This document shows, piece by piece, positions 5,020 to 52,239 of a stretch of 64,000 nucleotides of DNA. The stretch lies in assembly GCF_011045215.1 (NCBI RefSeq), contig NZ_CP049201.1. One strand, written 5' to 3'. The position numbers and the translations under genes are program-made. Origin of the DNA: Escherichia coli (GTDB lineage: Bacteria; Pseudomonadota; Gammaproteobacteria; Enterobacterales; Enterobacteriaceae). The notes under the pieces were generated by a model. It had not been told where the DNA came from, did no database searches, and was given only the letters and a program-made list of their open reading frames with translations. Position 1 is the first letter of the stretch; each line of letters begins with the position of its first letter.

Positions 5020-6906
5020 ATGTCTTTTAGCGAATTTTATCAGCGTTCGATTAACGAACCGGAGCAGTTCTGGGCCGAGCAGGCCCGGCGTATTGACTGG
5101 CAGACGCCCTTTACGCAAACGCTCGATCACAGCAATCCTCCGTTTGCTCGTTGGTTTTGTGAAGGCCGAACCAACTTGTGTCACAACGCTATCGATCGCT
5201 GGCTGGAGAAACAGCCAGAGGCGCTGGCGCTGATTGCCGTCTCTTCGGAAACAGAAGAAGAGCGCACCTTTACCTTTCGTCAGCTGCATGACGAAGTGAA
5301 CGCGGTGGCGTCAATGCTGCGCTCACTGGGCGTGCAGCGTGGCGAACGGGTGCTGGTGTATATGCCGATGATTGCCGAAGCGCATATAACCCTGCTGGCT
5401 TGCGCGCGCATTGGCGCTATTCACTCGGTGGTGTTTGGTGGATTTGCCTCTCATAGCGTGGCGGCGCGAATTGATGATGCTAAACCGGTGCTGATTGTCT
5501 CGGCTGATGCCGGAGCGCGCGGTGGCAAAATCATTCCCTATAAAAAATTGCTCGACGATGCGATAAGTCAGGCGCAGCACCAGCCGCGCCATGTTTTGCT
5601 GGTGGATCGCGGGCTGGCGAAAATGGCGCGCGTCAGCGGGCGGGATGTCGATTTCGCGTCGTTGCGCCATCAACACATCGGCGCGCGGGTACCGGTGGCG
5701 TGGCTGGAATCCAACGAAACCTCCTGCATTCTCTACACCTCCGGCACGACCGGCAAACCTAAAGGCGTGCAGCGCGACGTCGGCGGATATGCGGTGGCGC
5801 TGGCGACCTCGATGGACACCATTTTTGGCGGCAAAGCGGGCGGTGTGTTCTTTTGTGCTTCGGATATCGGCTGGGTGGTGGGGCATTCGTATATCGTCTA
5901 CGCGCCGCTGCTGGCGGGGATGGCGACTATCGTTTACGAAGGATTACCGACCTGGCCGGACTGCGGCGTGTGGTGGAAAATCGTCGAGAAATATCAGGTT
6001 AGCCGGATGTTCTCAGCGCCGACCGCCATTCGCGTGCTGAAAAAATTCCCTACCGCTGAAATTCGCAAACACGATCTCTCGTCGCTGGAAGTACTCTATC
6101 TGGCGGGGGAGCCGCTGGACGAGCCAACCGCCAGTTGGGTAAGCAATACGCTGGATGTGCCGGTTATCGACAACTACTGGCAGACCGAATCCGGCTGGCC
6201 GATTATGGCGATTGCTCGCGGTCTGGACGACAGGCCGACGCGTCTGGGAAGCCCCGGCGTGCCGATGTATGGCTATAACGTGCAGTTGCTTAATGAAGTC
6301 ACCGGCGAACCGTGTGGCGTCAACGAGAAAGGGATGCTGGTGGTGGAAGGGCCGCTGCCGCCGGGCTGTATTCAGACCATCTGGGGCGACGACGACCGCT
6401 TTGTGAAGACTTACTGGTCGCTGTTTTCCCGCCCGGTGTACGCCACCTTTGACTGGGGCATCCGTGACGCTGACGGTTATCACTTTATTCTCGGGCGCAC
6501 TGACGATGTAATTAACGTCGCCGGGCATCGGCTGGGCACGCGCGAGATTGAAGAGAGTATCTCCAGTCATCCGGGCGTTGCCGAAGTGGCGGTGGTTGGG
6601 GTGAAAGATGCGCTGAAAGGGCAGGTGGCGGTGGCGTTTGTCATTCCGAAAGAGAGCGACAGTCTGGAAGACCGCGAGGTGGCGCATTCACAAGAGAACG
6701 CGATTATGGCGCTGGTGGACAGCCAGATTGGCAACTTTGGCCGCCCGGCGCACGTCTGGTTTGTCTCGCAATTGCCAAAAACGCGATCCGGAAAAATGCT
6801 GCGCCGCACGATCCAGGCGATTTGCGAAGGACGCGATCCTGGGGATCTGACGACCATTGATGATCCTGCGTCGTTGGATCAGATCCGCCAGGCGATGGAA
6901 GAGTAA
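5020..6906 (+). CDS. prpE: Propionyl-CoA synthetase
   Basis: 628-aa ORF with an acyl-CoA synthetase AMP-binding motif (YTSGTTGKPKG). Confidence 0.95.
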   Translation: MSFSEFYQRSINEPEQFWAEQARRIDWQTPFTQTLDHSNPPFARWFCEGRTNLCHNAIDRWLEKQPEALALIAVSSETEEERTFTFRQLHDEVNAVASMLRSLGVQRGERVLVYMPMIAEAHITLLACARIGAIHSVVFGGFASHSVAARIDDAKPVLIVSADAGARGGKIIPYKKLLDDAISQAQHQPRHVLLVDRGLAKMARVSGRDVDFASLRHQHIGARVPVAWLESNETSCILYTSGTTGKPKGVQRDVGGYAVALATSMDTIFGGKAGGVFFCASDIGWVVGHSYIVYAPLLAGMATIVYEGLPTWPDCGVWWKIVEKYQVSRMFSAPTAIRVLKKFPTAEIRKHDLSSLEVLYLAGEPLDEPTASWVSNTLDVPVIDNYWQTESGWPIMAIARGLDDRPTRLGSPGVPMYGYNVQLLNEVTGEPCGVNEKGMLVVEGPLPPGCIQTIWGDDDRFVKTYWSLFSRPVYATFDWGIRDADGYHFILGRTDDVINVAGHRLGTREIEESISSHPGVAEVAVVGVKDALKGQVAVAFVIPKESDSLEDREVAHSQENAIMALVDSQIGNFGRPAHVWFVSQLPKTRSGKMLRRTIQAICEGRDPGDLTTIDDPASLDQIRQAMEE

Positions 6907-7840: not shown

Positions 7841-7905
7841 GTTTTTACACCGATAATTTTCCCCCCACCTTTTTGCACTCATTCATATAAAAAATATATT
7901 TCCCC

Positions 7906-16093: not shown

Positions 16094-19206
<3,113 letters not shown>

Positions 19207-19212
19207 TCACAC

Positions 19213-19242
19213 AACATACGAGTCGGACGCATAAAGTGTAAA
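19213..19242 (-). promoter_or_regulatory. lac promoter P1 (-10 TATGTT and -35 TTTACA, 18-bp spacer)
   Basis: Plus-strand aacata at 19213-19218 is the -10 and tgtaaa at 19237-19242 is the -35. The spacer has two substitutions relative to the familiar K-12 sequence. Confidence 0.85.
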
Positions 19243-30199: not shown

Positions 30200-31033
30200 T
30201 CAACGCATATTCAGTTTATTGGCGTGGTAGGCAATATGCTCGCCAATAAAACTGGAGACAAAATAATAGCTGTGGTCGTAACCCTCGTGATAACGGATTA
30301 ACGTCTTGATATTCATCTCCTGGCAGATCTTTTCAAGATTTTGAGTCCGCAGCTGTTCCGCGTAAAAATCATCACTCAACCCCTGATCAACCATGATTTC
30401 CGCAACGCGTTGACCTTGTGAAATAAGACTCACCGGGTCGTAATCCAACCAGGCCTCTTTATTTTCACCAAGATATGCAGCAAAGGCTTGCTGTCCCCAC
30501 GGCACTTGCGATGGGGAGACAATGGGCGAAAACGCCGAGACGCTGACATATTCATCTGGGTTACGTAACGCCAGCACCAGCGCGCCCAGCCCGCCCATAG
30601 AATGACCAGAGATAGACTTTTTGGCCGTTGCCGGAAAATGTTGCATCACTAAATCCGGCAGCTCGTTGCGGATATAGTCATACATTTTGTAATGTTCATT
30701 CCACGGCGCTTGCGTCGCGTTCAGGTAAAACCCGGCACCTTGCCCGAGATCGTAACGGTCGGCATCTGCGACATGACTGCCTCGCGGACTGGTGTCCGGC
30801 GCAACAATAATAATGTTGTGCTCAGCCGCGTAACGCTGCATCCCCGATTTAGTAATGAAATTCTGCTCATTGCAGGTCAGGCCCGAAAGCCAGTACAGCA
30901 CAGGTAATTTTTCACCTGCAGCTTTTGGTGGGAGATAGACGCCGACATTCATTTCACATTTCAGTGATGCGGAATAATGCCGATACACATTTTGCCAGCC
31001 GCCAAAGCTGGCATGTTTTTCAATGAGTTCCAT
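30200..31033 (-). CDS. frmB: S-formylglutathione hydrolase
   Basis: 277-aa ORF, MELIEKHASFGGWQNVYRHYSASL..., esterase D family with GHSMGG. Confidence 0.93.
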   Translation of the reverse strand: MELIEKHASFGGWQNVYRHYSASLKCEMNVGVYLPPKAAGEKLPVLYWLSGLTCNEQNFITKSGMQRYAAEHNIIIVAPDTSPRGSHVADADRYDLGQGAGFYLNATQAPWNEHYKMYDYIRNELPDLVMQHFPATAKKSISGHSMGGLGALVLALRNPDEYVSVSAFSPIVSPSQVPWGQQAFAAYLGENKEAWLDYDPVSLISQGQRVAEIMVDQGLSDDFYAEQLRTQNLEKICQEMNIKTLIRYHEGYDHSYYFVSSFIGEHIAYHANKLNMR

Positions 31034-31125: not shown

Positions 31126-32265
<1,140 letters not shown>

Positions 32266-32269
32266 TCAG

Positions 32270-32545
32270 CTATTTAAGATAGGCACGAACCAGTTCAATA
32301 GTGTCGTCAACGGATTGGCTGACTTCGCGGCTGTAGCAGTCATTTCGGTCAAACGTTTCCCGGATATGGCTTTCAAGCACTTCTGCCATCAGCCCATTAG
32401 CCGCGCCCCGAACGGCAGCGATCTGTTGGAGTATGGCACGGCATTCGGCATCACCCTCCAGCGACCGTTCCAGAGCATCAATCTGCCCTCGAATACGACG
32501 AACTCGAGTAAGGACCTTTTTCTTCTCTTCCGGAGTACTGGGCAT
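32270..32545 (-). CDS. frmR: Formaldehyde-responsive repressor FrmR (CsoR/RcnR family)
   Basis: Protein [48 protein letters not shown]..., 91 aa. The ORF track starts 7 codons upstream. Confidence 0.9.
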
Positions 32546-32570
32546 TTCGCACCTCATCATCTGCATGCAA

Positions 32571-32622
32571 TATACTATAGGGGGGTATGCTATATGTCAA
32601 TGCATACCCCCCTATAGTATAT
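32571..32622 (-). promoter_or_regulatory. frmRAB promoter/operator: long G/C-tract inverted repeat
   Basis: atactataggggggtatgc ... gcatacccccctatagtat forms a near-perfect palindrome immediately upstream of frmR. Confidence 0.7.
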
Positions 32623-32704
32623 AACACTGGAGAATAATTGTTGTCCGAAGCCTAACCAGGCGAACGGTCCCTCAAGACAGATGGGGACCGTTTATGTGCT
32701 ATTT

Positions 32705-33751
32705 TTATGCCGCATCCGCTAAAACAAACATCCCGTAAGGATGGATTTCGAGGTAATAGTGCTCACCAATATCGGGCTGTAAACGGGTGGCGTTTACTTG
32801 TAATAAAATCTCCTGTCCATGCCACTCTACGGTCACTTCGTACTGCGGCCCCATGTAGGCGACATGGCGAATAACACAACGCTGACTCTCTTCGCCGTGA
32901 TTGCTTAAGGTGATGGCTTCCGGGCGAACGCCGACGGTGCCGCTACCTTGCGCCGGGAAATGCGCCGCGCGCGGCAGGCGATAACCGTAGATATCGACAT
33001 ACTCTTCGCTAAAGTTCGCCGGGAACAGGTTGGCGTCGCCCATAAAACTTGCCATAAATCGGGAGGCTGGCTGACGATAGAGATCCTGCGGTGAGCCAAT
33101 CTGCATGATGTGACCTTTATTCATCACCAGCACAGTGTCGGACACCGCGAAAGCTTCACTTTGATCGTGAGTGACGTAGAGCGACGTGATATTAAACTGC
33201 TTTTGCAGCTCGCGGATCTTATCGCGCATACTGCGGCGCAGGTTGGCATCGAGGTTACTTAACGGCTCATCAAACAGCAGCACCTTTGGCTTGAGGATCA
33301 ACGCGCGGGCCAGTGCCACACGCTGTTGCTGACCACCGGAAATCTGATCGACATAGCGGTCCTCGAAGCCTTCCAGATCCACCATTGCCAGCGCCTCCTT
33401 CACCCGCTGTTTCACTTCGCTACGCGACACGCCAAGCATCTTCAGCCCGTAGCCAACGTTTTCACCCAGCGACATATGCGGGAACAGAGCGTATGACTGA
33501 AACACCATGCAGATATCGCGCTGTTGAATGGAACGATGCGTGACATCTTCGCCATCAATAAAAATTTGCCCTTCGCTCGGTTTTTCCAGCCCGGCAACCA
33601 GACGCAAAATGGTGGTTTTGCCACAGCCGGAAGGACCGAGCAGCGTCACCATTTGCCCTTGTGGAATGGTGAGATTGATATTGTCGATAACCGTATTACT
33701 GCCGAATCGTTTAGTGACGTTGCGCAGTTCAACAAAATTTTTCTGACTCAT
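32705..33751 (-). CDS. afuC: ABC transporter ATP-binding subunit, AfuC/FbpC-type, with a C-terminal TOBE-like domain
   Basis: Walker [13 protein letters not shown] signature [15 protein letters not shown], Walker [12 protein letters not shown]. Start chosen at the second ATG ([12 protein letters not shown]...), which has a GGAG Shine-Dalgarno sequence; the ORF-track ATG at 33763 overlaps the afuB stop as TAATG. Confidence 0.85.
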
Positions 33752-33762
33752 AGTGCGCTCCA

Positions 33763-35841
33763 TTACGCCTGGTTTTTGGCTTTAGAACGGGAGATACGAG
33801 CTTCTCCGATCAGCCAGTCAAAGAGGAAAATAATCGCCAGCATCACCACGATCAGAATCGAACCATAGGCGATGGCTACGCCATATTCGCCGTCTTCAAC
33901 GCGGTTAAGAATGTAGGCGGTTGCCACGCGGGTGTCCGGCGTGACGAGAAAGACGATGGCGCTGACCGTCGTGATGGCCCGCACAAAGCTGTAGATCAGG
34001 GCCGAGAGAATGGCCGGACGCAGCAGCGGCAGTAAAATGTGGGTTATGGTTCGCAAGGAACCCGCGCGCAGGCTGAGTGAGGCTTCATCCAGCGATTTGT
34101 CGATCTGCCCCAGACCCGCAATCCCGGCGCGAATACCCACCGGAACGTTACGCATCACCATCGAGATAATCACAATTGCCGCCGTTCCGGTGAGATAAAC
34201 CGGAGCGCTGTTAAAGGCAAGAATATACGAAACGCCCGCCACCGTACCCGGTACGGCAAAGCACAGCATGGTGGTGAACTCGATGGTCTTTTTGCCTTTG
34301 AATTGTTGACGCACCACCACCCAGGCGATGAGCAGGCCAAAGATAGCGGTAATGGGAGCGGCAATCCCGGCGTAGAGCAGGGTATCCAGCAGTGAAGGCC
34401 ACGCGCCGTCGCTCATTCCCTGACCAAATAGCTTGATAAAGTTATCCAGCGTCAGGGTGTAGTCCACGCCCCAGTTCACCGTGAAGCTGCCGTAGAAAAT
34501 GCTGCCGTAGAGCAGGGCGTTAAAGGCAATCCATATCGCAAGTATGGCGACCACGCTCCACACCAGGGTGACCGGTAGCGGCTGGACGTCGCCACGGTAG
34601 GATTTGCCGGAAACCGTGACGTAAGAGCGTTTACCAATCCACATATACTGGATGCAGAACACCAGCAGCGAGAACAGCAGCAGGAAAGCGCCAAGGGTGC
34701 TGGCGGCCTGATAATCCAGCTGCGAGCCGGTAATATAGAAGTAAATTTGCGTCGCCAGTACGTCGAAGTTACCGCCAAGTACCAGCGGGTTACTGAAATC
34801 AGCCAGTGACTGTACCACGACGATTAAAAAGGCATTGGCGAGTGCGGGCTTTAGCAACGGCACAAACACGCCGTTAAAGGTTTGCCAGCGGCTGGCGCGC
34901 AGGGTGTAGGAGGCCTCTTCCAGCGAGGGATGAATGGTTTTAATGGCCCCGTCGAGGATCATAAATGCCATTGGCGTGAATGCCAGAACCTGTGCCAGCC
35001 AGATCCCGGTAAAACCGTACAGCCAGTTGGTGTTGGTCAGCCCAAACCACTCCACCATAAATTCCGTAACATAGCCGGAGCGCCCCATCATGAGCGTCAC
35101 GCCTAAGCCGACCACAAACGGTGGCGTAACGATGGGCAAAATGGAAAAGATGCGACCAATAATGGCGCTGCGTTTAGCGATGCGCGTGGTATAAATCGCC
35201 AGCACCAGGCCGAAGAAAGTACAGCCTATCCCCACCGCTATCGACAAGACGATAGAGTTGACGATCACCTGAACAATATGTGCCTGCGAGAGCACGGTCA
35301 TAAACGCCAGCGGGGCGAACTCTCCCGCGTCGTTGGTGAACATCGGGATAAAAATGGCGATGCTCGGCCAGACGATAAAAATGCCAATCAGCGCCACAAT
35401 CGCAATCAGTGAGCCGATCACGAAGCGGTCGCCGCCCAGCCATTCGAGGCGGGTTAAGGCCAGCGTCATAATCGCGCCTAGTTCAACAAACAGCACGATG
35501 GCGGCGTAGCCTAAACCGCGTCCAGCCACGGTGGCGCTGATGACGATAAACGCCATACAGAGCAATGCCCAGCTGGCATCAAAATAATGACGACTACGCT
35601 GTTCGCGTGTGACCTCACGAAACGGGCGAACCAGCAACAGACTCGGTAACAAATACCACAGCCAGCTGATATTAAAATGCGACCAGCCATAAGCCTCGAG
35701 GATCTCATCACTCGTGGACTCCAGCAGGCCATAATCGAGGCTCCAGCTCGGCAACAGTATAAATGCCAGCCAGCCCAGCAAAACCCAAAGGAAAATCGCA
35801 TCCCGCTTTTTCACGGGATGGAGTGCAAGTGTCTGTGACAT
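33763..35841 (-). CDS. afuB: ABC transporter permease, fused two-domain FbpB/AfuB type
   Basis: About 692 aa and highly hydrophobic, with duplicated permease halves. Start taken at the ATG giving [14 protein letters not shown]...; the ORF-track start at 35892 is a TTG. Confidence 0.8.
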
Positions 35842-35909
35842 AGCAGTTCCGGTATGGTTGGCCGGGGCAGGCGTTTGTGCTGCACCCGGCAAATACGCCT
35901 AATGCGGGT

Positions 35910-36941
35910 TTATTTACCCATCTTCACTTCGCTGACCCATTTATTAATCAATGCCTTACGAACATCCGTGGAACCATATTTATCCATGTCGTAGTTGATT
36001 AATTTCAGGTCGTCGAGCTTCAGCGAATTTGGCGACGTTTCGGCGGTGGTATTGGTCAGGATCTGATAAGACTTCCCTTTCTTCCACGCCAGTTCCTGAG
36101 CTTCTTTTGATAATACCCAGTCCACAAACAGTTTGGCGTTGTCGAGGTTGCGCGCGCCTTTCAGAATGCTGACGCCGCCAATTTCGTAGCCCGTACCTTC
36201 ACACGGGGAAATCAACTCCAGCGGCGCGCCCTGTTCTTTTTCCAGCGAGTAGTCATGCAGGAAGCCAATACCAATCGCCGTTTCGCCACGGGCGGCGTTA
36301 CGTGCCGGGGCTATGCCTGATTTGGTGTACTGAGAGACGTTGGCGTTCAGTTGTTTTAGATAATCAAAGGCCTGATCTTCCCCCCACAGCTGCGCAAAAG
36401 TAGCCAGGGCGGTGTAGGCAGTACCGGAACTTTGCGGATCGGCAATTTGAATTTCGCCTTTATATTCCGGTTTGGTGAGATCTTTCCAGCACTTCGGCAC
36501 CGGCAGGTTTTTCTCTTTCAGACGATCGGTGTTTACGCCAAAACCGAGGATCCCCACATAAACGGCAGAGGACAGATTCCCTTTCACTTTTGCCGGATCG
36601 CGGAATTTCTCCATGATCTGCTCAAGGTTAGGGGATTTATACGCCTGTAGCAGGCCCATCTCGCCAGCCTGCGATTGCGGGTCTAAAGTGCCGCCGTACC
36701 AGACGTCAGCCTGGGGGTTTTTCTTTTCAGCATCGACTTTTGCCAGGGTGCTTCCGGAACCGTTGCGGATAAACGAGGTTTTTACATCATATTTCTCGCC
36801 AAACGCTTTGGTTTCGGCCTCACACATTTCATTGGTGGCGCTGCAATAGACCACCAGCCGGCCTTTTGCCTGCGCGGCACCCGTTAAAGTCGCCAGCGCA
36901 ACGGCAGAAGCAATCAGAGTAGAGGTAAAGGTCATTTTCAT
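35910..36941 (-). CDS. afuA: Periplasmic substrate-binding protein, AfuA-type (sugar-phosphate/ferric-binding fold family)
   Basis: Start at the ATG at 36941-36939, preceded by AAGGA, giving MKMTFTSTLIASAVALATLTGAAQA-KGR... with a clear signal peptide; 343 aa. The ORF track extends 109 codons upstream with no support. Confidence 0.85.
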   Translation of the reverse strand: MKMTFTSTLIASAVALATLTGAAQAKGRLVVYCSATNEMCEAETKAFGEKYDVKTSFIRNGSGSTLAKVDAEKKNPQADVWYGGTLDPQSQAGEMGLLQAYKSPNLEQIMEKFRDPAKVKGNLSSAVYVGILGFGVNTDRLKEKNLPVPKCWKDLTKPEYKGEIQIADPQSSGTAYTALATFAQLWGEDQAFDYLKQLNANVSQYTKSGIAPARNAARGETAIGIGFLHDYSLEKEQGAPLELISPCEGTGYEIGGVSILKGARNLDNAKLFVDWVLSKEAQELAWKKGKSYQILTNTTAETSPNSLKLDDLKLINYDMDKYGSTDVRKALINKWVSEVKMGK

Positions 36942-38242
36942 TGTTTTATCCTTCGAGCGTGAGTGGTGGTGATGCCCGCCATCAGTAACGGCATCAGCAG
37001 TAAACCCATAAGTACTGCGGCGACCGAGAGTAAACTGAACATTCCCGGCCAGCCGTAGCGTTCGATGACCAGCGACAGCGGCCAGCCTGCCAGCGCCGCG
37101 CCAAGGTAAGCGAACAGGCCGAGAAATCCGGTGATTGAACCCGCCGCAGCTTTGTGCCCACACTCCACCGCCGCAAGTCCAATCAGCATTTGTGGGCCAA
37201 AGACGAAAAAGCCCACGGTAAAAAAGCACACTGCCAGCAGAGCGTAGTGATGAACCGGTGCCAGCCACAGTGCGGCGACTGACACCATCAACCCCAACGT
37301 GAACAGCAAAATCATTGGCGCTCGTTGCCCGCTAAACAGCAAATCCGATCCCCATCCGGCAAATAACGCGCCGAGTAAGCCGCCCACTTCAAACAGCATT
37401 ACCGTGGCGTTGGCGCTGAGCAGGTTGACACCGTGGCTTTCCGTCAGCCAGATATTGCCCCAGTCGTTAAGCGCAATCCGGATCACATAAACCAGTACAT
37501 AAGAGACGCCCAGTAGCCAGATCAGCGGATTTTGCAGCATGGTGGTGCGCAACATTTGCCACAGCCCCATCGGCGGACTTTGTTGTTCCTGACGTAACTC
37601 CAGCGGATCGTGACGCCAGTGACCAACTGTCGGTAATCCCTCTTCCTGGGGCGTGCCTTTGAGTTGTAGCGTTAACCAGATCCCTAATGCCATGCTGATT
37701 ATCCCCGGTGTCAGCATCGCGGCCTGCCAGCCCCACCAGTGGGCGGCAAAGGCGCTAATCAGCGGAATAATCGCTCCGCCAATGTTGATCGACATATTCC
37801 AGCAGCCCCACCAGAAACCGCGCTCATTGCGTGAGTACCAGTGGGTCAGCAAGCGGGCACACGGTGGCCATCCCCAGCCCTGAAAAAAACCGTTCAGTGT
37901 CCAGACCACAAGCAGAAGCGTAAGTGATTCGCCAAAGGCAAACACCACGTTCAATAACCCGGTGGCGAACAAGCCGACGCCCATAAAACCGCGTTGTCCG
38001 TGGCTGTCATGCCACAGTCCGGCGGTAAATTTCGACAATCCGTAGCTGAGATAAAACAGCGAACCCAGCAGGCCAATGTCGCCTTTATCCAGTCCGAGGT
38101 CGGTTTGTAGCGCCGGAAGGACGTAATTCACGCTTTTTCGCGTCAGATAAAATGCGGCGTAGCCAATAATCATGCACATCAGCAATCGCGGACGTAATGT
38201 CCGGTAGCATTGATTAATTTCTCTCGCTGAACGCGCGTGCAT
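36938..38242 (-). CDS. MFS organophosphate:phosphate antiporter-family protein, UhpC-like (probable sugar-phosphate sensor)
   Basis: About 434 aa with UhpC/UhpT-like sequence (...YAAFYLTRKSVNYVLPALQTDLGL...). Its TGA stop overlaps the afuA ATG (ATGA). Start probably at the second ATG (GGAGA Shine-Dalgarno); 38254 is the alternative. Confidence 0.8.
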   Translation of the reverse strand: MHARSAREINQCYRTLRPRLLMCMIIGYAAFYLTRKSVNYVLPALQTDLGLDKGDIGLLGSLFYLSYGLSKFTAGLWHDSHGQRGFMGVGLFATGLLNVVFAFGESLTLLLVVWTLNGFFQGWGWPPCARLLTHWYSRNERGFWWGCWNMSINIGGAIIPLISAFAAHWWGWQAAMLTPGIISMALGIWLTLQLKGTPQEEGLPTVGHWRHDPLELRQEQQSPPMGLWQMLRTTMLQNPLIWLLGVSYVLVYVIRIALNDWGNIWLTESHGVNLLSANATVMLFEVGGLLGALFAGWGSDLLFSGQRAPMILLFTLGLMVSVAALWLAPVHHYALLAVCFFTVGFFVFGPQMLIGLAAVECGHKAAAGSITGFLGLFAYLGAALAGWPLSLVIERYGWPGMFSLLSVAAVLMGLLLMPLLMAGITTTHARRIKQ

Positions 38243-38326
38243 GGTTGTCTCCATGTTGCTGACTATATGAAAATGAAAGTGAAAGGGGATGAGAGAAAAT
38301 CCGGGATACCTAAGACTTTTTCCTGG

Positions 38327-39868
38327 TTATCCGGCGATTTGTTGCAAAAATGTGGGCAAGTTAACAATTACCCGCGTGCCGTGCTGTTTTTCGAGCGTTA
38401 AGTCGCCGCCCAGGGCGCTGACGCGCTCACGCATCCCCTGAATGCCAAATCCGGCCATTTTCCCGCTGGCGATCCCCACACCGTTGTCGCTGACTTCCAG
38501 ATGCAATACCTCTCCCTGCTGGCGCAGGATAATCGTCACTTCGCTGGCTTCGGCGTGTTTACAGATGTTATTGAGCAACTCCTGCAATAACCGATACAAG
38601 GTAAAGCGCACCGTTTCGTTTTCTGGTGTGGAGTTCAGTTGATAGGCAAACTGGCAATGAATGCCGCGTTCACTAAAGGCAAATTCATTAATCAGATGCA
38701 ACAACGCTTCGCGAAATGTCAGTTCATCAAGCGCGGGAGGCCGCAACTGGCGTAGCAATTGGCGGGTGGAGAGATGAATGCGGCGGGCGAGCTCATTGAT
38801 TTGGCTGGCTGCGGATTGAATTTGCGCCGGATCACGCGCCCGCTTCACCAGTTGCGACTGGATCTGAATGGCGGTGATGTTCTGACCGATTTCGTCGTGC
38901 AGCTCTCGCGCCAGGTTTTTTCGCGTGTCCTCCTCGGTGTGGATCAGCTTTTCCGCCAATGCCCGCCGCGCTGCCAGCTCGGCCTCCAGCCGTTGTCGGT
39001 AATGGTGCAGGTTTAGCGCCAGATGTTGCTGGCGACTGATGGCAATGCCCAGGCCAATTCCCAGCAAGGCCTGGGTCGCGAGGAAAATCTCCAGCTCCAC
39101 CAGGTTACTAAAGCCCACGCCAATCTGGCGGGCGATGGTGATCATCATGCTGCCCAAAAGCCCGGAGAGTACGCCACCTTGCCAGCCAAATTTCCACGCC
39201 ATCACCACATTGGGCAAAAAGACCACGATCAACAGCAGACGTTCAATTTCAGGTGACAGCACCATCTGAGTGCCGATACCAATAATAAAAAACAGGCTAC
39301 ACCAGATGATTAAAGAGGTACGCAAGGGGGGATTATGCGTATCGAGTCCCAGGAGCTGGTAGCGATGCTGCTGGCGCAGAAACTCAAAGATAAGATAGAC
39401 AAACGGCGTCAGTAATACGCCGCCGGTAAATGAGGTCAAACCCGGCAGCATTATTGGGCCCGACATAAAAGGGGAGAGCAGGGCGGTATTCAACAATGAA
39501 GCTGCCGTGACAGTGGCTAACAGCAACGTCAGACGCTGCCAGTAAAGTGGAAAACGGTGCCAGAAGTTTTGCGCAAGGAGGACAGGAAACAGGCTAATAA
39601 CCGGCGTTGCCAGCATGAGATAACCGTTCAATAGCTGTTCACTATGGAGCCAGAACATCATCAGCAAAGGGGGGAGCACCAACGCAGGCCAGTAGCGGCG
39701 AGAGAGCAAAATAACAAGGGCGAGATAAACTCCCTGAGGGAGAAACAACACTGCCTGTTGACCGTTATTGGTCAGATAAAAGCTGAGCGTCCACAGCATC
39801 AGCCAGCCGGTTCCCCAGGCCAGCACAATAAACAGCGAAATCACCCAATGACGAAGATTGCGCGACAT
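38327..39868 (-). CDS. Membrane sensor histidine kinase, UhpB-like (MASE1 N-terminal domain, HisKA_3, HATPase)
   Basis: 513 aa with about 8 N-terminal transmembrane helices, an H-box RELHDEIGQNITAIQ, and ATPase motifs DNGVGI...GFGIQGMRERV. Confidence 0.85.
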   Translation of the reverse strand: MSRNLRHWVISLFIVLAWGTGWLMLWTLSFYLTNNGQQAVLFLPQGVYLALVILLSRRYWPALVLPPLLMMFWLHSEQLLNGYLMLATPVISLFPVLLAQNFWHRFPLYWQRLTLLLATVTAASLLNTALLSPFMSGPIMLPGLTSFTGGVLLTPFVYLIFEFLRQQHRYQLLGLDTHNPPLRTSLIIWCSLFFIIGIGTQMVLSPEIERLLLIVVFLPNVVMAWKFGWQGGVLSGLLGSMMITIARQIGVGFSNLVELEIFLATQALLGIGLGIAISRQQHLALNLHHYRQRLEAELAARRALAEKLIHTEEDTRKNLARELHDEIGQNITAIQIQSQLVKRARDPAQIQSAASQINELARRIHLSTRQLLRQLRPPALDELTFREALLHLINEFAFSERGIHCQFAYQLNSTPENETVRFTLYRLLQELLNNICKHAEASEVTIILRQQGEVLHLEVSDNGVGIASGKMAGFGIQGMRERVSALGGDLTLEKQHGTRVIVNLPTFLQQIAG

Positions 39869-40497
39869 TAATGCCCCGCCAGCAGATGGTGGTCGAGCGC
39901 AAAATGTACCAGTTCAATGGTGCTATGGCAGTTCAGTTTTCCCAGCACATTGGCGCGATGCACATGTACCGTTTTATGACTGAGTTCGAGTTTAAAGGCG
40001 ATCTCTTTAACGCTGTCTCCTTTGACCAGTAAATCAAACACTTCACGTTCTCGTGGGGTGAGAATTTCTAGCGCCTGGGCGGGTTGCCCGCCGCCGCGTA
40101 AAGCCCGAATCGCATCGGCACAGAGATAATGCCCGCCCAGCCCGACCGAGCGCACCGCCTGTACTAACTCTTCCGGCCCACAGCGTTTGGTTAAATACCC
40201 GCTGGCACCAGCATCCAGCGCGCTTTGCACAAAGGTTGGCGCGTCATAAATGCTAAGAATAATGGCGCGAAATTGCGGTTTTTGTGCACGCAGGCGCTTA
40301 AGCAAACTGAGGCCGTTTTCGTCCGGCATGGCAATATCAATGACGGCAACATTGACGTCATCACGGATTAATGCCGACCATGCCTGCGCGGCACTACTGT
40401 ACTGACCAATGACCTCCAGATCGTCTTCCAGAGAGAGTAATTGTGCGAAGCCAGAGCGCACCACCACATGGTCATCCACCAGCACTACCCGAATCAT
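39868..40497 (-). CDS. Response regulator, UhpA-like (NarL/LuxR family)
   Basis: 209 aa, MIRVVLVDDHVVVRSGFAQLL... receiver domain plus a C-terminal LuxR HTH (TPREREVFDLLVKGDSVKEIAFKLELSHKTVHVHRANVLGKL). Its TAA stop overlaps the kinase ATG (TAATG). Confidence 0.85.
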   Translation of the reverse strand: MIRVVLVDDHVVVRSGFAQLLSLEDDLEVIGQYSSAAQAWSALIRDDVNVAVIDIAMPDENGLSLLKRLRAQKPQFRAIILSIYDAPTFVQSALDAGASGYLTKRCGPEELVQAVRSVGLGGHYLCADAIRALRGGGQPAQALEILTPREREVFDLLVKGDSVKEIAFKLELSHKTVHVHRANVLGKLNCHSTIELVHFALDHHLLAGH

Positions 40498-40799
40498 ACT
40501 TTTCTTCTCTTATTATCTAATTCTCCTATCATGCATCACGGCGCGGCGCTGGCAATCAACCAGCGACAGATATGGAATGGATGTAACAAAATGGCAATAA
40601 TTTGCCGGAGCGCACACATCTTATCTGGCTTGTGAACCGGCGGGATACGTTCGCCAAAACCGCAAAATGCGCAAACTCGCTAACCATTGCCGATTTTTTT
40701 CTAAAAACGCTTTGTTCTTAACAAGACCTTTTAATTCCTTTATCAAACTGACCCGCAACGAAATACTGCTCCCATAACAAGACAGGGGAGCAGACAATC

Positions 40800-48820: not shown

Positions 48821-49509
<689 letters not shown>

Positions 49510-51018: not shown

Positions 51019-52239
51019 ATGTTTAAGTCTTTTTTCCCAAAGCCGGGAACGTTTTTTCTCTCGGCCTTTGTTTGGGCATTGATTGCCGTTATCTTCTGGC
51101 AAGCCGGTGGGGGGGACTGGGTGGCGCGTATCACCGGCGCTTCCGGGCAGATCCCGATTAGCGCCGCGCGTTTCTGGTCGTTGGATTTCCTGATTTTTTA
51201 CGCTTACTACATTGTTTGCGTAGGACTTTTTGCATTGTTCTGGTTTATCTACAGCCCGCACCGTTGGCAATACTGGTCAATACTCGGTACTGCACTGATC
51301 ATCTTCGTCACCTGGTTTTTGGTGGAAGTCGGGGTTGCCGTCAACGCCTGGTATGCACCGTTCTATGATCTGATTCAAACCGCGCTAAGTTCGCCGCATA
51401 AAGTCACTATCGAACAATTTTACCGCGAAGTGGGCGTCTTTCTGGGGATTGCGCTGATCGCGGTAGTGATCAGTGTGCTGAATAACTTCTTTGTCAGTCA
51501 CTACGTGTTCCGCTGGCGTACGGCGATGAACGAATATTACATGGCGAACTGGCAACAACTGCGTCATATCGAAGGCGCCGCACAGCGTGTGCAGGAAGAC
51601 ACCATGCGTTTTGCTTCAACGCTGGAGAATATGGGCGTCAGTTTTATCAACGCCATCATGACGTTGATCGCCTTCCTGCCGGTGCTGGTAACGCTCTCCG
51701 CGCATGTGCCGGAGCTGCCGATTATCGGGCACATTCCGTATGGTCTGGTGATTGCCGCTATCGTCTGGTCGCTGATGGGGACCGGATTGCTGGCAGTGGT
51801 AGGGATCAAACTGCCGGGGCTGGAGTTTAAAAACCAGCGAGTAGAGGCTGCCTACCGTAAAGAGCTGGTTTATGGTGAAGACGATGCCACGCGCGCGACG
51901 CCGCCAACGGTACGCGAGCTGTTTAGCGCCGTACGGAAAAACTATTTCCGCCTCTATTTTCACTATATGTATTTCAACATCGCTCGCATTCTCTATTTGC
52001 AGGTCGATAACGTTTTCGGTTTGTTCTTGCTGTTTCCGTCAATTGTTGCCGGTACGATTACGCTCGGCCTGATGACGCAGATTACCAACGTTTTTGGTCA
52101 GGTTCGCGGTGCTTTCCAGTACCTGATTAACTCATGGACCACACTGGTTGAGTTGATGTCTATCTACAAACGTCTGCGCAGCTTTGAACATGAGCTGGAT
52201 GGTGACAAAATTCAGGAAGTAACCCATACCTTGAGCTAA
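51019..52239 (+). CDS. sbmA: Peptide antibiotic/microcin transporter SbmA
   Basis: Protein [34 protein letters not shown]..., 406 aa. The ORF track starts 2 codons upstream. Confidence 0.92.

Follow-up and report, generated by a model that had tools for sequence, protein, structure and literature searches.

The window, a 64-kb stretch of Escherichia coli DNA (64,000 nt), carries the frmRAB operon on its minus strand and, ahead of it, a long inverted repeat. The cognate DUF156 repressor gene frmR is the first gene of the operon, directly downstream of two FrmR sites contained in the repeat, and is followed by frmA and frmB. The repeat lies 25-77 nt upstream of frmR, whose start at 32545 is 27 nt from the promoter-proximal site. 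The 161-nt region around the palindrome is 100% identical to that of strain PapM-32-1, and frmR is annotated in thousands of RefSeq genomes. The features of the locus are as follows.

30200-31033, minus strand: frmB/fghA, S-formylglutathione hydrolase (equivalog-level match)
31126-32235, minus strand: frmA, S-(hydroxymethyl)glutathione dehydrogenase (equivalog-level match)
32270-32545, minus strand: frmR, formaldehyde-responsive repressor of 91 amino acids (NCBIfam NF008464 equivalog, 189 bits against a cut-off of 133; RefSeq annotation)
32570-32590, no strand: left arm of the 21-nt inverted repeat, ATATACTATAGGGGGGTATGC (repeat finder and sequence)
32572-32577, minus strand: predicted -10 hexamer TAGTAT with a 17-nt spacer (consensus)
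32572-32588, minus strand: promoter-proximal FrmR type I site, ATACCCCCCTATAGTAT on the frmR strand, spanning promoter spacer and -10 (site definition from PMC5146963)
32574-32579, minus strand: alternative -10 TATAGT with a 15-nt spacer, two bases upstream of TAGTAT (PMC3946193)
32580-32585, plus strand: G6 run (C6 on the frmR strand), within the proximal site and the 17-nt spacer between -35 and -10
32595-32600, minus strand: predicted -35 hexamer TTGACA, in the 11-nt centre of the palindrome (consensus)
32602-32622, no strand: right arm of the 21-nt inverted repeat, GCATACCCCCCTATAGTATAT (repeat finder and sequence)
32604-32620, minus strand: promoter-distal FrmR type I site, ATACTATAGGGGGGTAT on the frmR strand, ending 3 nt upstream of the -35 (site definition from PMC5146963)
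32607-32612, plus strand: C6 run (G6 on the frmR strand), within the distal site and upstream of the -35

The repeat finder and direct reading of the sequence agree on two arms of 21 nt each, 100% complementary, separated by an 11-nt centre. The original prediction had described a near-perfect inverted repeat with G/C runs of 6-7 nt; the repeat is real, but it is perfect, it begins one base earlier at 32570, and both runs are exactly 6 nt. Among perfect inverted repeats of the window with a loop of at most 20 nt it is the longest, the runner-up having arms of 13 nt, and 20 block shuffles of the window gave maximum arms of 8-12 nt, so the palindrome is far beyond chance. The second rank is shared by two repeats with 13-nt arms, one at 48839-48868 and one at 19179-19213 (TGTGTGAAATTGT/ACAATTTCACACA), the latter situated between lacI and lacZ, in the lac operator region. 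The description of the G/C tracts as unusually long is not apt, since type I operators of the CsoR/RcnR family are defined by G/C tracts of 3-8 bp and the rcnR-rcnA operator has runs of G6 and G7.

Each arm contains one type I operator motif, ATAC-TATAGGGGG-GTAT at 32572-32588 and ATAC-CCCCCTATA-GTAT at 32604-32620, each with a 6-nt G/C run. The two sites are inverted with their starts 32 bp apart, and they are the only occurrences of ATAC-N9-GTAT in the window, where 0.34 would be expected. The sole sigma-70-like promoter match between 32200 and 32800 is TTGACA-17-TAGTAT on the minus strand. This predicted core promoter overlaps the FrmR sites, with the -35 placed between them and the -10 inside the proximal site, and transcription of frmRAB is predicted to start near 32565-32567. 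Genomic SELEX with the RpoD holoenzyme lists the frmR-yaiO spacer and assigns TTGACA-15-TATAGT to frmRAB (PMC3946193).

The same architecture has been described in E. coli K-12, in which a large inverted repeat of Pfrm centred at -29 was identified as tandem type I FrmR sites with ATAC/GTAT around 9-bp G/C-rich tracts (Denby et al. 2016, PMC5146963). K-12 PfrmRAB is the same locus with the same 17-bp sites, ATACTATAGGGGGGTAT and ATACCCCCCTATAGTAT, in the same relation to the -35 and -10, and the window simply represents another E. coli strain. The operator reading is therefore not new. Small differences occur between the two. K-12 and NCTC9038 have T in place of G at window position 32589, which shortens the perfect arms to 19 nt compared with 21 here, and the spacing of 32 bp counted here from start to start compares with site centres 31 bp apart in the published description. 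The upstream neighbour is yaiO in K-12 and fbpC in the window.

E. coli has two alternative forms of the DNA upstream of the palindrome (window 32638 onward, approximately 32705-40500), with the breakpoint just 15 bp from the palindrome edge. In 450 of 5,415 genomes, including O157:H7, O145, PapM-32-1 and the window itself, fbpC, an ABC permease, a binding protein, uhpC, a MASE1 sensor kinase and a response regulator lie upstream; the remaining E. coli genomes have yaiO, an acetyltransferase and yaiP. Directly past the fbpC stop codon a further hairpin, AACGGUCCCC...GGGACCGUU, is present at 32662-32691 on the minus strand and lacks a subsequent U run; a 78-nt stretch containing it folds at -21.9 kcal/mol (z = -1.9).

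The binding of Pfrm by FrmR, its release by formaldehyde and the sufficiency of the sites for repression are taken here from published work. FrmR binds Pfrm DNA (a PCR fragment) with a Kd of about 220 nM and dissociates on exposure to formaldehyde through Pro2-Cys35 methylene bridges, and a stop codon in frmR gives constitutive expression (PMC5146963). ATAC-N9-GTAT sites transplanted into the constitutive promoter J23100 confer FrmR-dependent repression, and a truncated promoter that keeps both sites loses repression at chromosomal FrmR levels, indicating that flanking DNA or protein dosage also matters (PMC11127321). In Salmonella the frmRA operator DNA saturates at two FrmR tetramers (PMC4528141). 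Published work on the CsoR/RcnR family describes recognition as a combination of DNA shape, in particular the A-form propensity of the G/C tract, and a constant separation of the ATAC and GTAT half-sites. No nucleotide-resolution FrmR footprint on frm operator DNA was found in the literature, and the word "footprint" is absent from PMC5146963.

The closest relative within E. coli is the rcnR-rcnA operator, which resembles the frm operator in having a DUF156/CsoR-RcnR repressor, two type I sites and G runs with short AT-rich inverted-repeat flanks. Read in K-12, its G6 and G7 runs lie in TACTGGGGGGTAGTA and TACTGGGGGGGAGTA, with the arrangement TACT-G6-N-AGTA. The RcnR sites are 15 bp long with TACT/AGTA flanks and form direct repeats approximately 20 bp apart, and the effector is nickel or cobalt (Iwig and Chivers 2009, quoted in PMC5146963), whereas the FrmR sites are inverted, 32 bp apart and 17 bp long with ATAC/GTAT flanks, an asymmetric TATAG-G5 core and formaldehyde as the effector. 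The frmRA system of Salmonella Typhimurium, compared by its published description, has an orthologous repressor in an autoregulated operon, two tetramers on the operator and de-repression by formaldehyde (Osman et al. 2015/2016; PMC4528141, PMC5016687); the operon is frmRA and lacks frmB, unlike frmRAB of E. coli.

A scan across species with FrmR as the query, taking one genome per species, returned 80 frmR loci from gamma-, beta- and alpha-proteobacteria. In 68 of the 80 loci ATAC-N(7-11)-GTAT is found no more than 130 nt ahead of frmR, and N is 9 in 83 of the 89 sites. The longest G/C run within the site varies from 1 to 6 across species, a run of 6 being found only in Escherichia and a few others; the proximal site of E. 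albertii has TCCCC. Between species the run thus changes by substitution with N9 kept, which suggests that selection holds the length of the site constant. Two sites are present at 21 loci (Enterobacterales, Aeromonas, Deefgea and Paraburkholderia), 32-40 bp apart except in Paraburkholderia with 23 bp. These pairs are mostly inverted, with 5-9 of the 9 core positions complementary; in Erwinia endophytica the two sites are in direct orientation (7/9 direct, 2/9 inverted). A single site with no palindrome is found at 47 of the 80 loci, usually right after TTGACA, and across the loci the sites usually abut or overlap TTGACA/TATAGT-like promoter elements. Across these loci the conserved functional unit is thus the 17-bp ATAC-N9-GTAT site on the promoter, and neither the G/C run nor the palindrome; the long perfect palindrome is a trait of the Escherichia lineage and of a mobile frm module.

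The frmR module referred to (loci L023, L025 and L033, approximately positions 1090-1200) has its own double operator with cores GTGGAG/CTCCAC and perfect arms of 18 nt. It is found on an Edwardsiella anguillarum plasmid, in Enterobacter sp. 10-1 and in Morganella psychrotolerans, and the upstream operator-promoter sequence is identical among them except for a couple of changes immediately before the start codon in Morganella. This module appears mobile. A 2.5-kb frm query also gave 36 matches on E. coli plasmids. A different arrangement is seen in the frmR homologues of seven Lysobacteraceae loci, where ATACTCCCCCCCACT, containing a C7 run, directly abuts the predicted ATG and a GTAT half-site is lacking. 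The operator there may be leaderless or arranged in another way, or the start codon may be wrongly assigned.

The suggestion in the original prediction that the repeat is a probable FrmR binding site is supported by the published work (PMC5146963, PMC11127321), with which the gene context, the promoter overlap and the conservation across taxa agree. The palindrome is best read as the frmRAB operator-promoter, composed of two inverted 17-bp type I sites from which FrmR tetramers would occlude the -35 and -10 until formaldehyde releases them, and we place the probability of this reading at roughly 0.92. What the present analysis observes directly is the anatomy of the repeat, its overlap with the promoter, the identities of the genes, the invariance in the population and the conservation of the 17-bp unit across species. 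The exact base contacts, the placing of one tetramer on each site and occlusion of the polymerase as the mechanism of repression are what we infer. In the proposed mechanism FrmR tetramers, most likely one per site, would sit on both sites when formaldehyde is absent and exclude RNA polymerase, with the G/C runs forming part of the recognition element. Formaldehyde would then cross-link Pro2 of FrmR to Cys35, FrmR would leave the DNA and frmR, frmA and frmB would be transcribed.

The length of the two runs was followed across complete E. coli genomes. A single copy of the frm locus was found in each of 5,411-5,415 of the 5,426 genomes, and in an evenly spaced sample of 60 locus matches 59 show no net length change. 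Shortened runs were counted with variant segments kept so short on either side that they could not seed a match in wild-type genomes, giving the plus-strand G5 in 14 genomes and C5 in 16 (30 in all); no run of four bases was found at either position in this variant-segment census. Lengthened runs were counted with flank-seeded queries within a band of at least 99% identity, since masking evidently keeps runs of 7 or more from seeding a match, and these searches left approximately 5-7% of genomes unscored owing to flank polymorphism. They gave G7 in at least 22 genomes (20 exact and 2 with an extra SNP), G8 in 1 and C7 in at least 8. Six variant representatives were verified by reading the sequence. 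In total approximately 61 of about 5,411 genomes (1.1%) depart from 6/6, in nearly every case by a single base and in one by +2, and approximately 98.9% are 6/6. The proposal that tract length may vary between strains holds only at this low level, as rare and sporadic changes of one base (one of +2).

Named variants are MRE162 (G7), 81EVA (a run of 8), E. coli 536 (C7, in the distal site) and K-12 DHB4 (G5). The G7 of MRE162 is found in three separately sequenced sub-strains, and its 2.5-kb haplotype is otherwise identical to a G6 haplotype common to many strains (for example ATCC 8739 and H10407), so the change is recent and sporadic and is no clade marker. Variants in general are scattered as singletons on common haplotypes with no clade fixed for another length, and the four O145 carriers of C5 are likewise scattered among near-identical O145 genomes having C6. 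The exact 81-nt allele of the window is present in only 248 genomes, the other single-base differences falling mostly outside both 17-bp sites. A frmR/yaiO intergenic difference has also been recorded in strains ZK1142 and ZK1143 compared with the reference ZK126 (PMC7858067).

As a control, six G6/C6 runs inside K-12 coding genes of the yeh/bts region were scored in the same genome collection for the loss of one base, with the following counts.

yehA run: 13 "-1" variants
yehI run (1): 11 "-1" variants
yehI run (2): 3 "-1" variants
yehP run: 14 "-1" variants
yehQ run: 10 "-1" variants
btsS run: 7 "-1" variants

The control counts of 3-14 (mean 9.7) compare with 14 and 16 at the operator runs, which places the operator at most approximately 1.5 times above the baseline of error and pseudogenes; matching wild-type control segments were found at a median of six of the seven possible places per genome. 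The "+1" control was readable only at the two joined yehI runs, where approximately 10 genomes (about 5 per run) compare with 22 and 8 at the operator. The runs of the rcnR operator gave 0 "-1" matches, a result that was not used because its sensitivity is doubtful, the two adjacent G runs being possibly masked.

Several carriers of a shortened operator run have lost a base elsewhere. RM9873-C1 (O145, operator C5) also has a G6-to-G5 frameshift in the nearby MASE1 sensor kinase gene (window 39326-39331), FORC_044 (operator C5) also has a G7-to-G6 change in sbmA, and RM8995-C1 and RM14723, both operator -1 carriers, recur as -1 carriers at the control runs. The coincidence of these changes with further -1 changes in other G/C runs, frameshifts included, indicates under-calling in assembly, and several of the operator run variants are probably assembly errors. 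A few, the G7 of MRE162 and the C7 of 536, look genuine. The operator runs show occasional slippage or miscalling as at any 6-nt run, and nothing indicates that their length serves to tune expression. Two other runs of the window vary as well. A G7 near the 5' end of sbmA (51109-51115) is G6 in five genomes, four of O157:H7 and FORC_044, in which a shorter SbmA is annotated; this is either an assembly error or a real variant that shifts the start. A C6 run in the codB-prpE intergenic region (7861-7866) is C5 in at least 57 genomes, among them PapM-32-1 and every O145:H28 genome among the matches listed (more than 20), and seems, in contrast to the operator runs, to be a homopolymer polymorphism inherited by a clade.

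The original prediction had proposed that slipped-strand changes in tract length tune repression of the operon. In this reading the G6 and C6 runs are a contingency locus in which frequent slippage by one base changes the half-site spacing and, at the proximal run, the spacing of -35 and -10, producing heritable differences in frmRAB expression that can be selected. Phase-variable homopolymer tracts in promoters are known from the contingency loci of Neisseria and Haemophilus, and the frm operator shares with these a G/C homopolymer between -35 and -10. The proximal run does lie within the 17-nt spacer, so a change of one base there would alter both the promoter and the half-site spacing and plausibly expression, and with the C run only the distal site would be affected. 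Runs of other lengths are indeed found (proximal 5 in 14 genomes, 7 in at least 22 and 8 in 1; distal 5 in 16 and 7 in at least 8), the 7-run of MRE162 recurs in its independently sequenced sub-strains, 536 has its distal 7-run, and the proximal +1 count of 22 exceeds the approximately 5 per run at the coding yehI runs. These points are outweighed by the population data. Approximately 98.9% of the genomes are 6/6, the variants occur singly on widespread haplotypes, the -1 counts are near those of the six coding runs, RM9873-C1, FORC_044, RM8995-C1 and RM14723 carry further -1 changes elsewhere, and between species the run is altered by substitution with N9 kept in 83 of 89 sites. Six bases is also short for a phase-variable tract, which typically has about 8 or more identical bases. 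Compared with the Neisseria and Haemophilus tracts, the frm runs are just 6 nt, are invariant in approximately 99% of genomes, vary at a frequency like that of coding runs and lie in a site of conserved length; polymorphism is infrequent and the tract is not long. Tuning by slippage is thus largely refuted at the population level and is very unlikely as an account of the runs; the claim that tract length tunes repression finds no support, the variant frequency being about that of coding G6/C6 runs with no lineage pattern. A narrower version, in which the minority lineages with genuine runs changed by one or two bases (MRE162 with 7, 81EVA with 8, 536 with a distal 7 and up to about 30 "+1" genomes) are regulatory variants that recur under mild selection, is improbable too; if true, the frm operator would be a low-rate evolvability hotspot of formaldehyde detoxification and not a fixed site.

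Two further alternatives concern how the palindrome works. It could act as a structure in nucleic acid, as a DNA cruciform or as an RNA hairpin in read-through transcripts (a terminator or insulator), rather than as protein sites. As single-stranded DNA it forms a very stable hairpin (-22.2 kcal/mol compared with -7.5 +/- 2.1 in shuffles, z = -7.15), and the upstream gene, fbpC here and yaiO in most strains, is co-directional, so that read-through RNA would contain it. The cores also co-vary in several Enterobacterales with the arms staying complementary, for example at 9/9 in the GTGGAG/CTCCAC cores of the mobile frm module. However, a transcript from the operon's own promoter starts downstream of the repeat, and the frmRAB mRNA would therefore lack the hairpin. 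The palindrome is absent from the 47 of 80 loci with a single site, the sites of Erwinia endophytica are direct, the arms in other taxa match at just 5-7 of 9 core positions, and an Rfam search returned only sub-threshold microRNA-hairpin noise. On neither strand is the stem followed by a T/U run (ATTGCATGCAG on the minus, ATAACACTGG on the plus) and the terminator scan did not call the palindrome, on which grounds an intrinsic terminator was rejected. A repetitive extragenic palindrome or mobile-element end was rejected as well, the median genome among 5,411 having the sequence at a single place. A role as nucleic-acid structure is accordingly extremely improbable. The other alternative keeps FrmR as the ligand and changes the stoichiometry: a single tetramer would use both faces to hold both sites by looping or wrapping, in place of one tetramer per site. 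This was raised in PMC5146963 on the ground that the two sites are more widely spaced than those of the rcnR operator, and that study left undecided whether two tetramers or one using both faces occupy the E. coli operator. The 32-bp spacing is approximately three helical turns, which would place the sites on one face, and the loss of repression in the truncated promoter hints at flanking DNA or wrapping (PMC11127321). Against this, Salmonella FrmR saturates its operator at two tetramers (PMC4528141), the spacing between sites is unphased across taxa (32, 33, 34, 35 and 40 bp), most taxa repress with a single site, and a loop of 32 bp would be sterically very tight. A bridging tetramer is on balance unlikely, though it is a credible minor possibility, and the operator-promoter with a tetramer on each of its two type I sites is preferred.

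The element itself adds little, since this FrmR operator is already published and its operon well studied. The present work adds that the 6/6 arrangement is held in approximately 99% of 5,400 complete E. coli genomes, and that the -1 variants apparent in public complete genomes can for the most part not be told apart from errors of homopolymer assembly. It further adds that the 17-bp unit is conserved across proteobacteria, which for the engineering of Pfrm formaldehyde biosensors would mean that N9 and the promoter spacer are constrained and the composition of the core is free.
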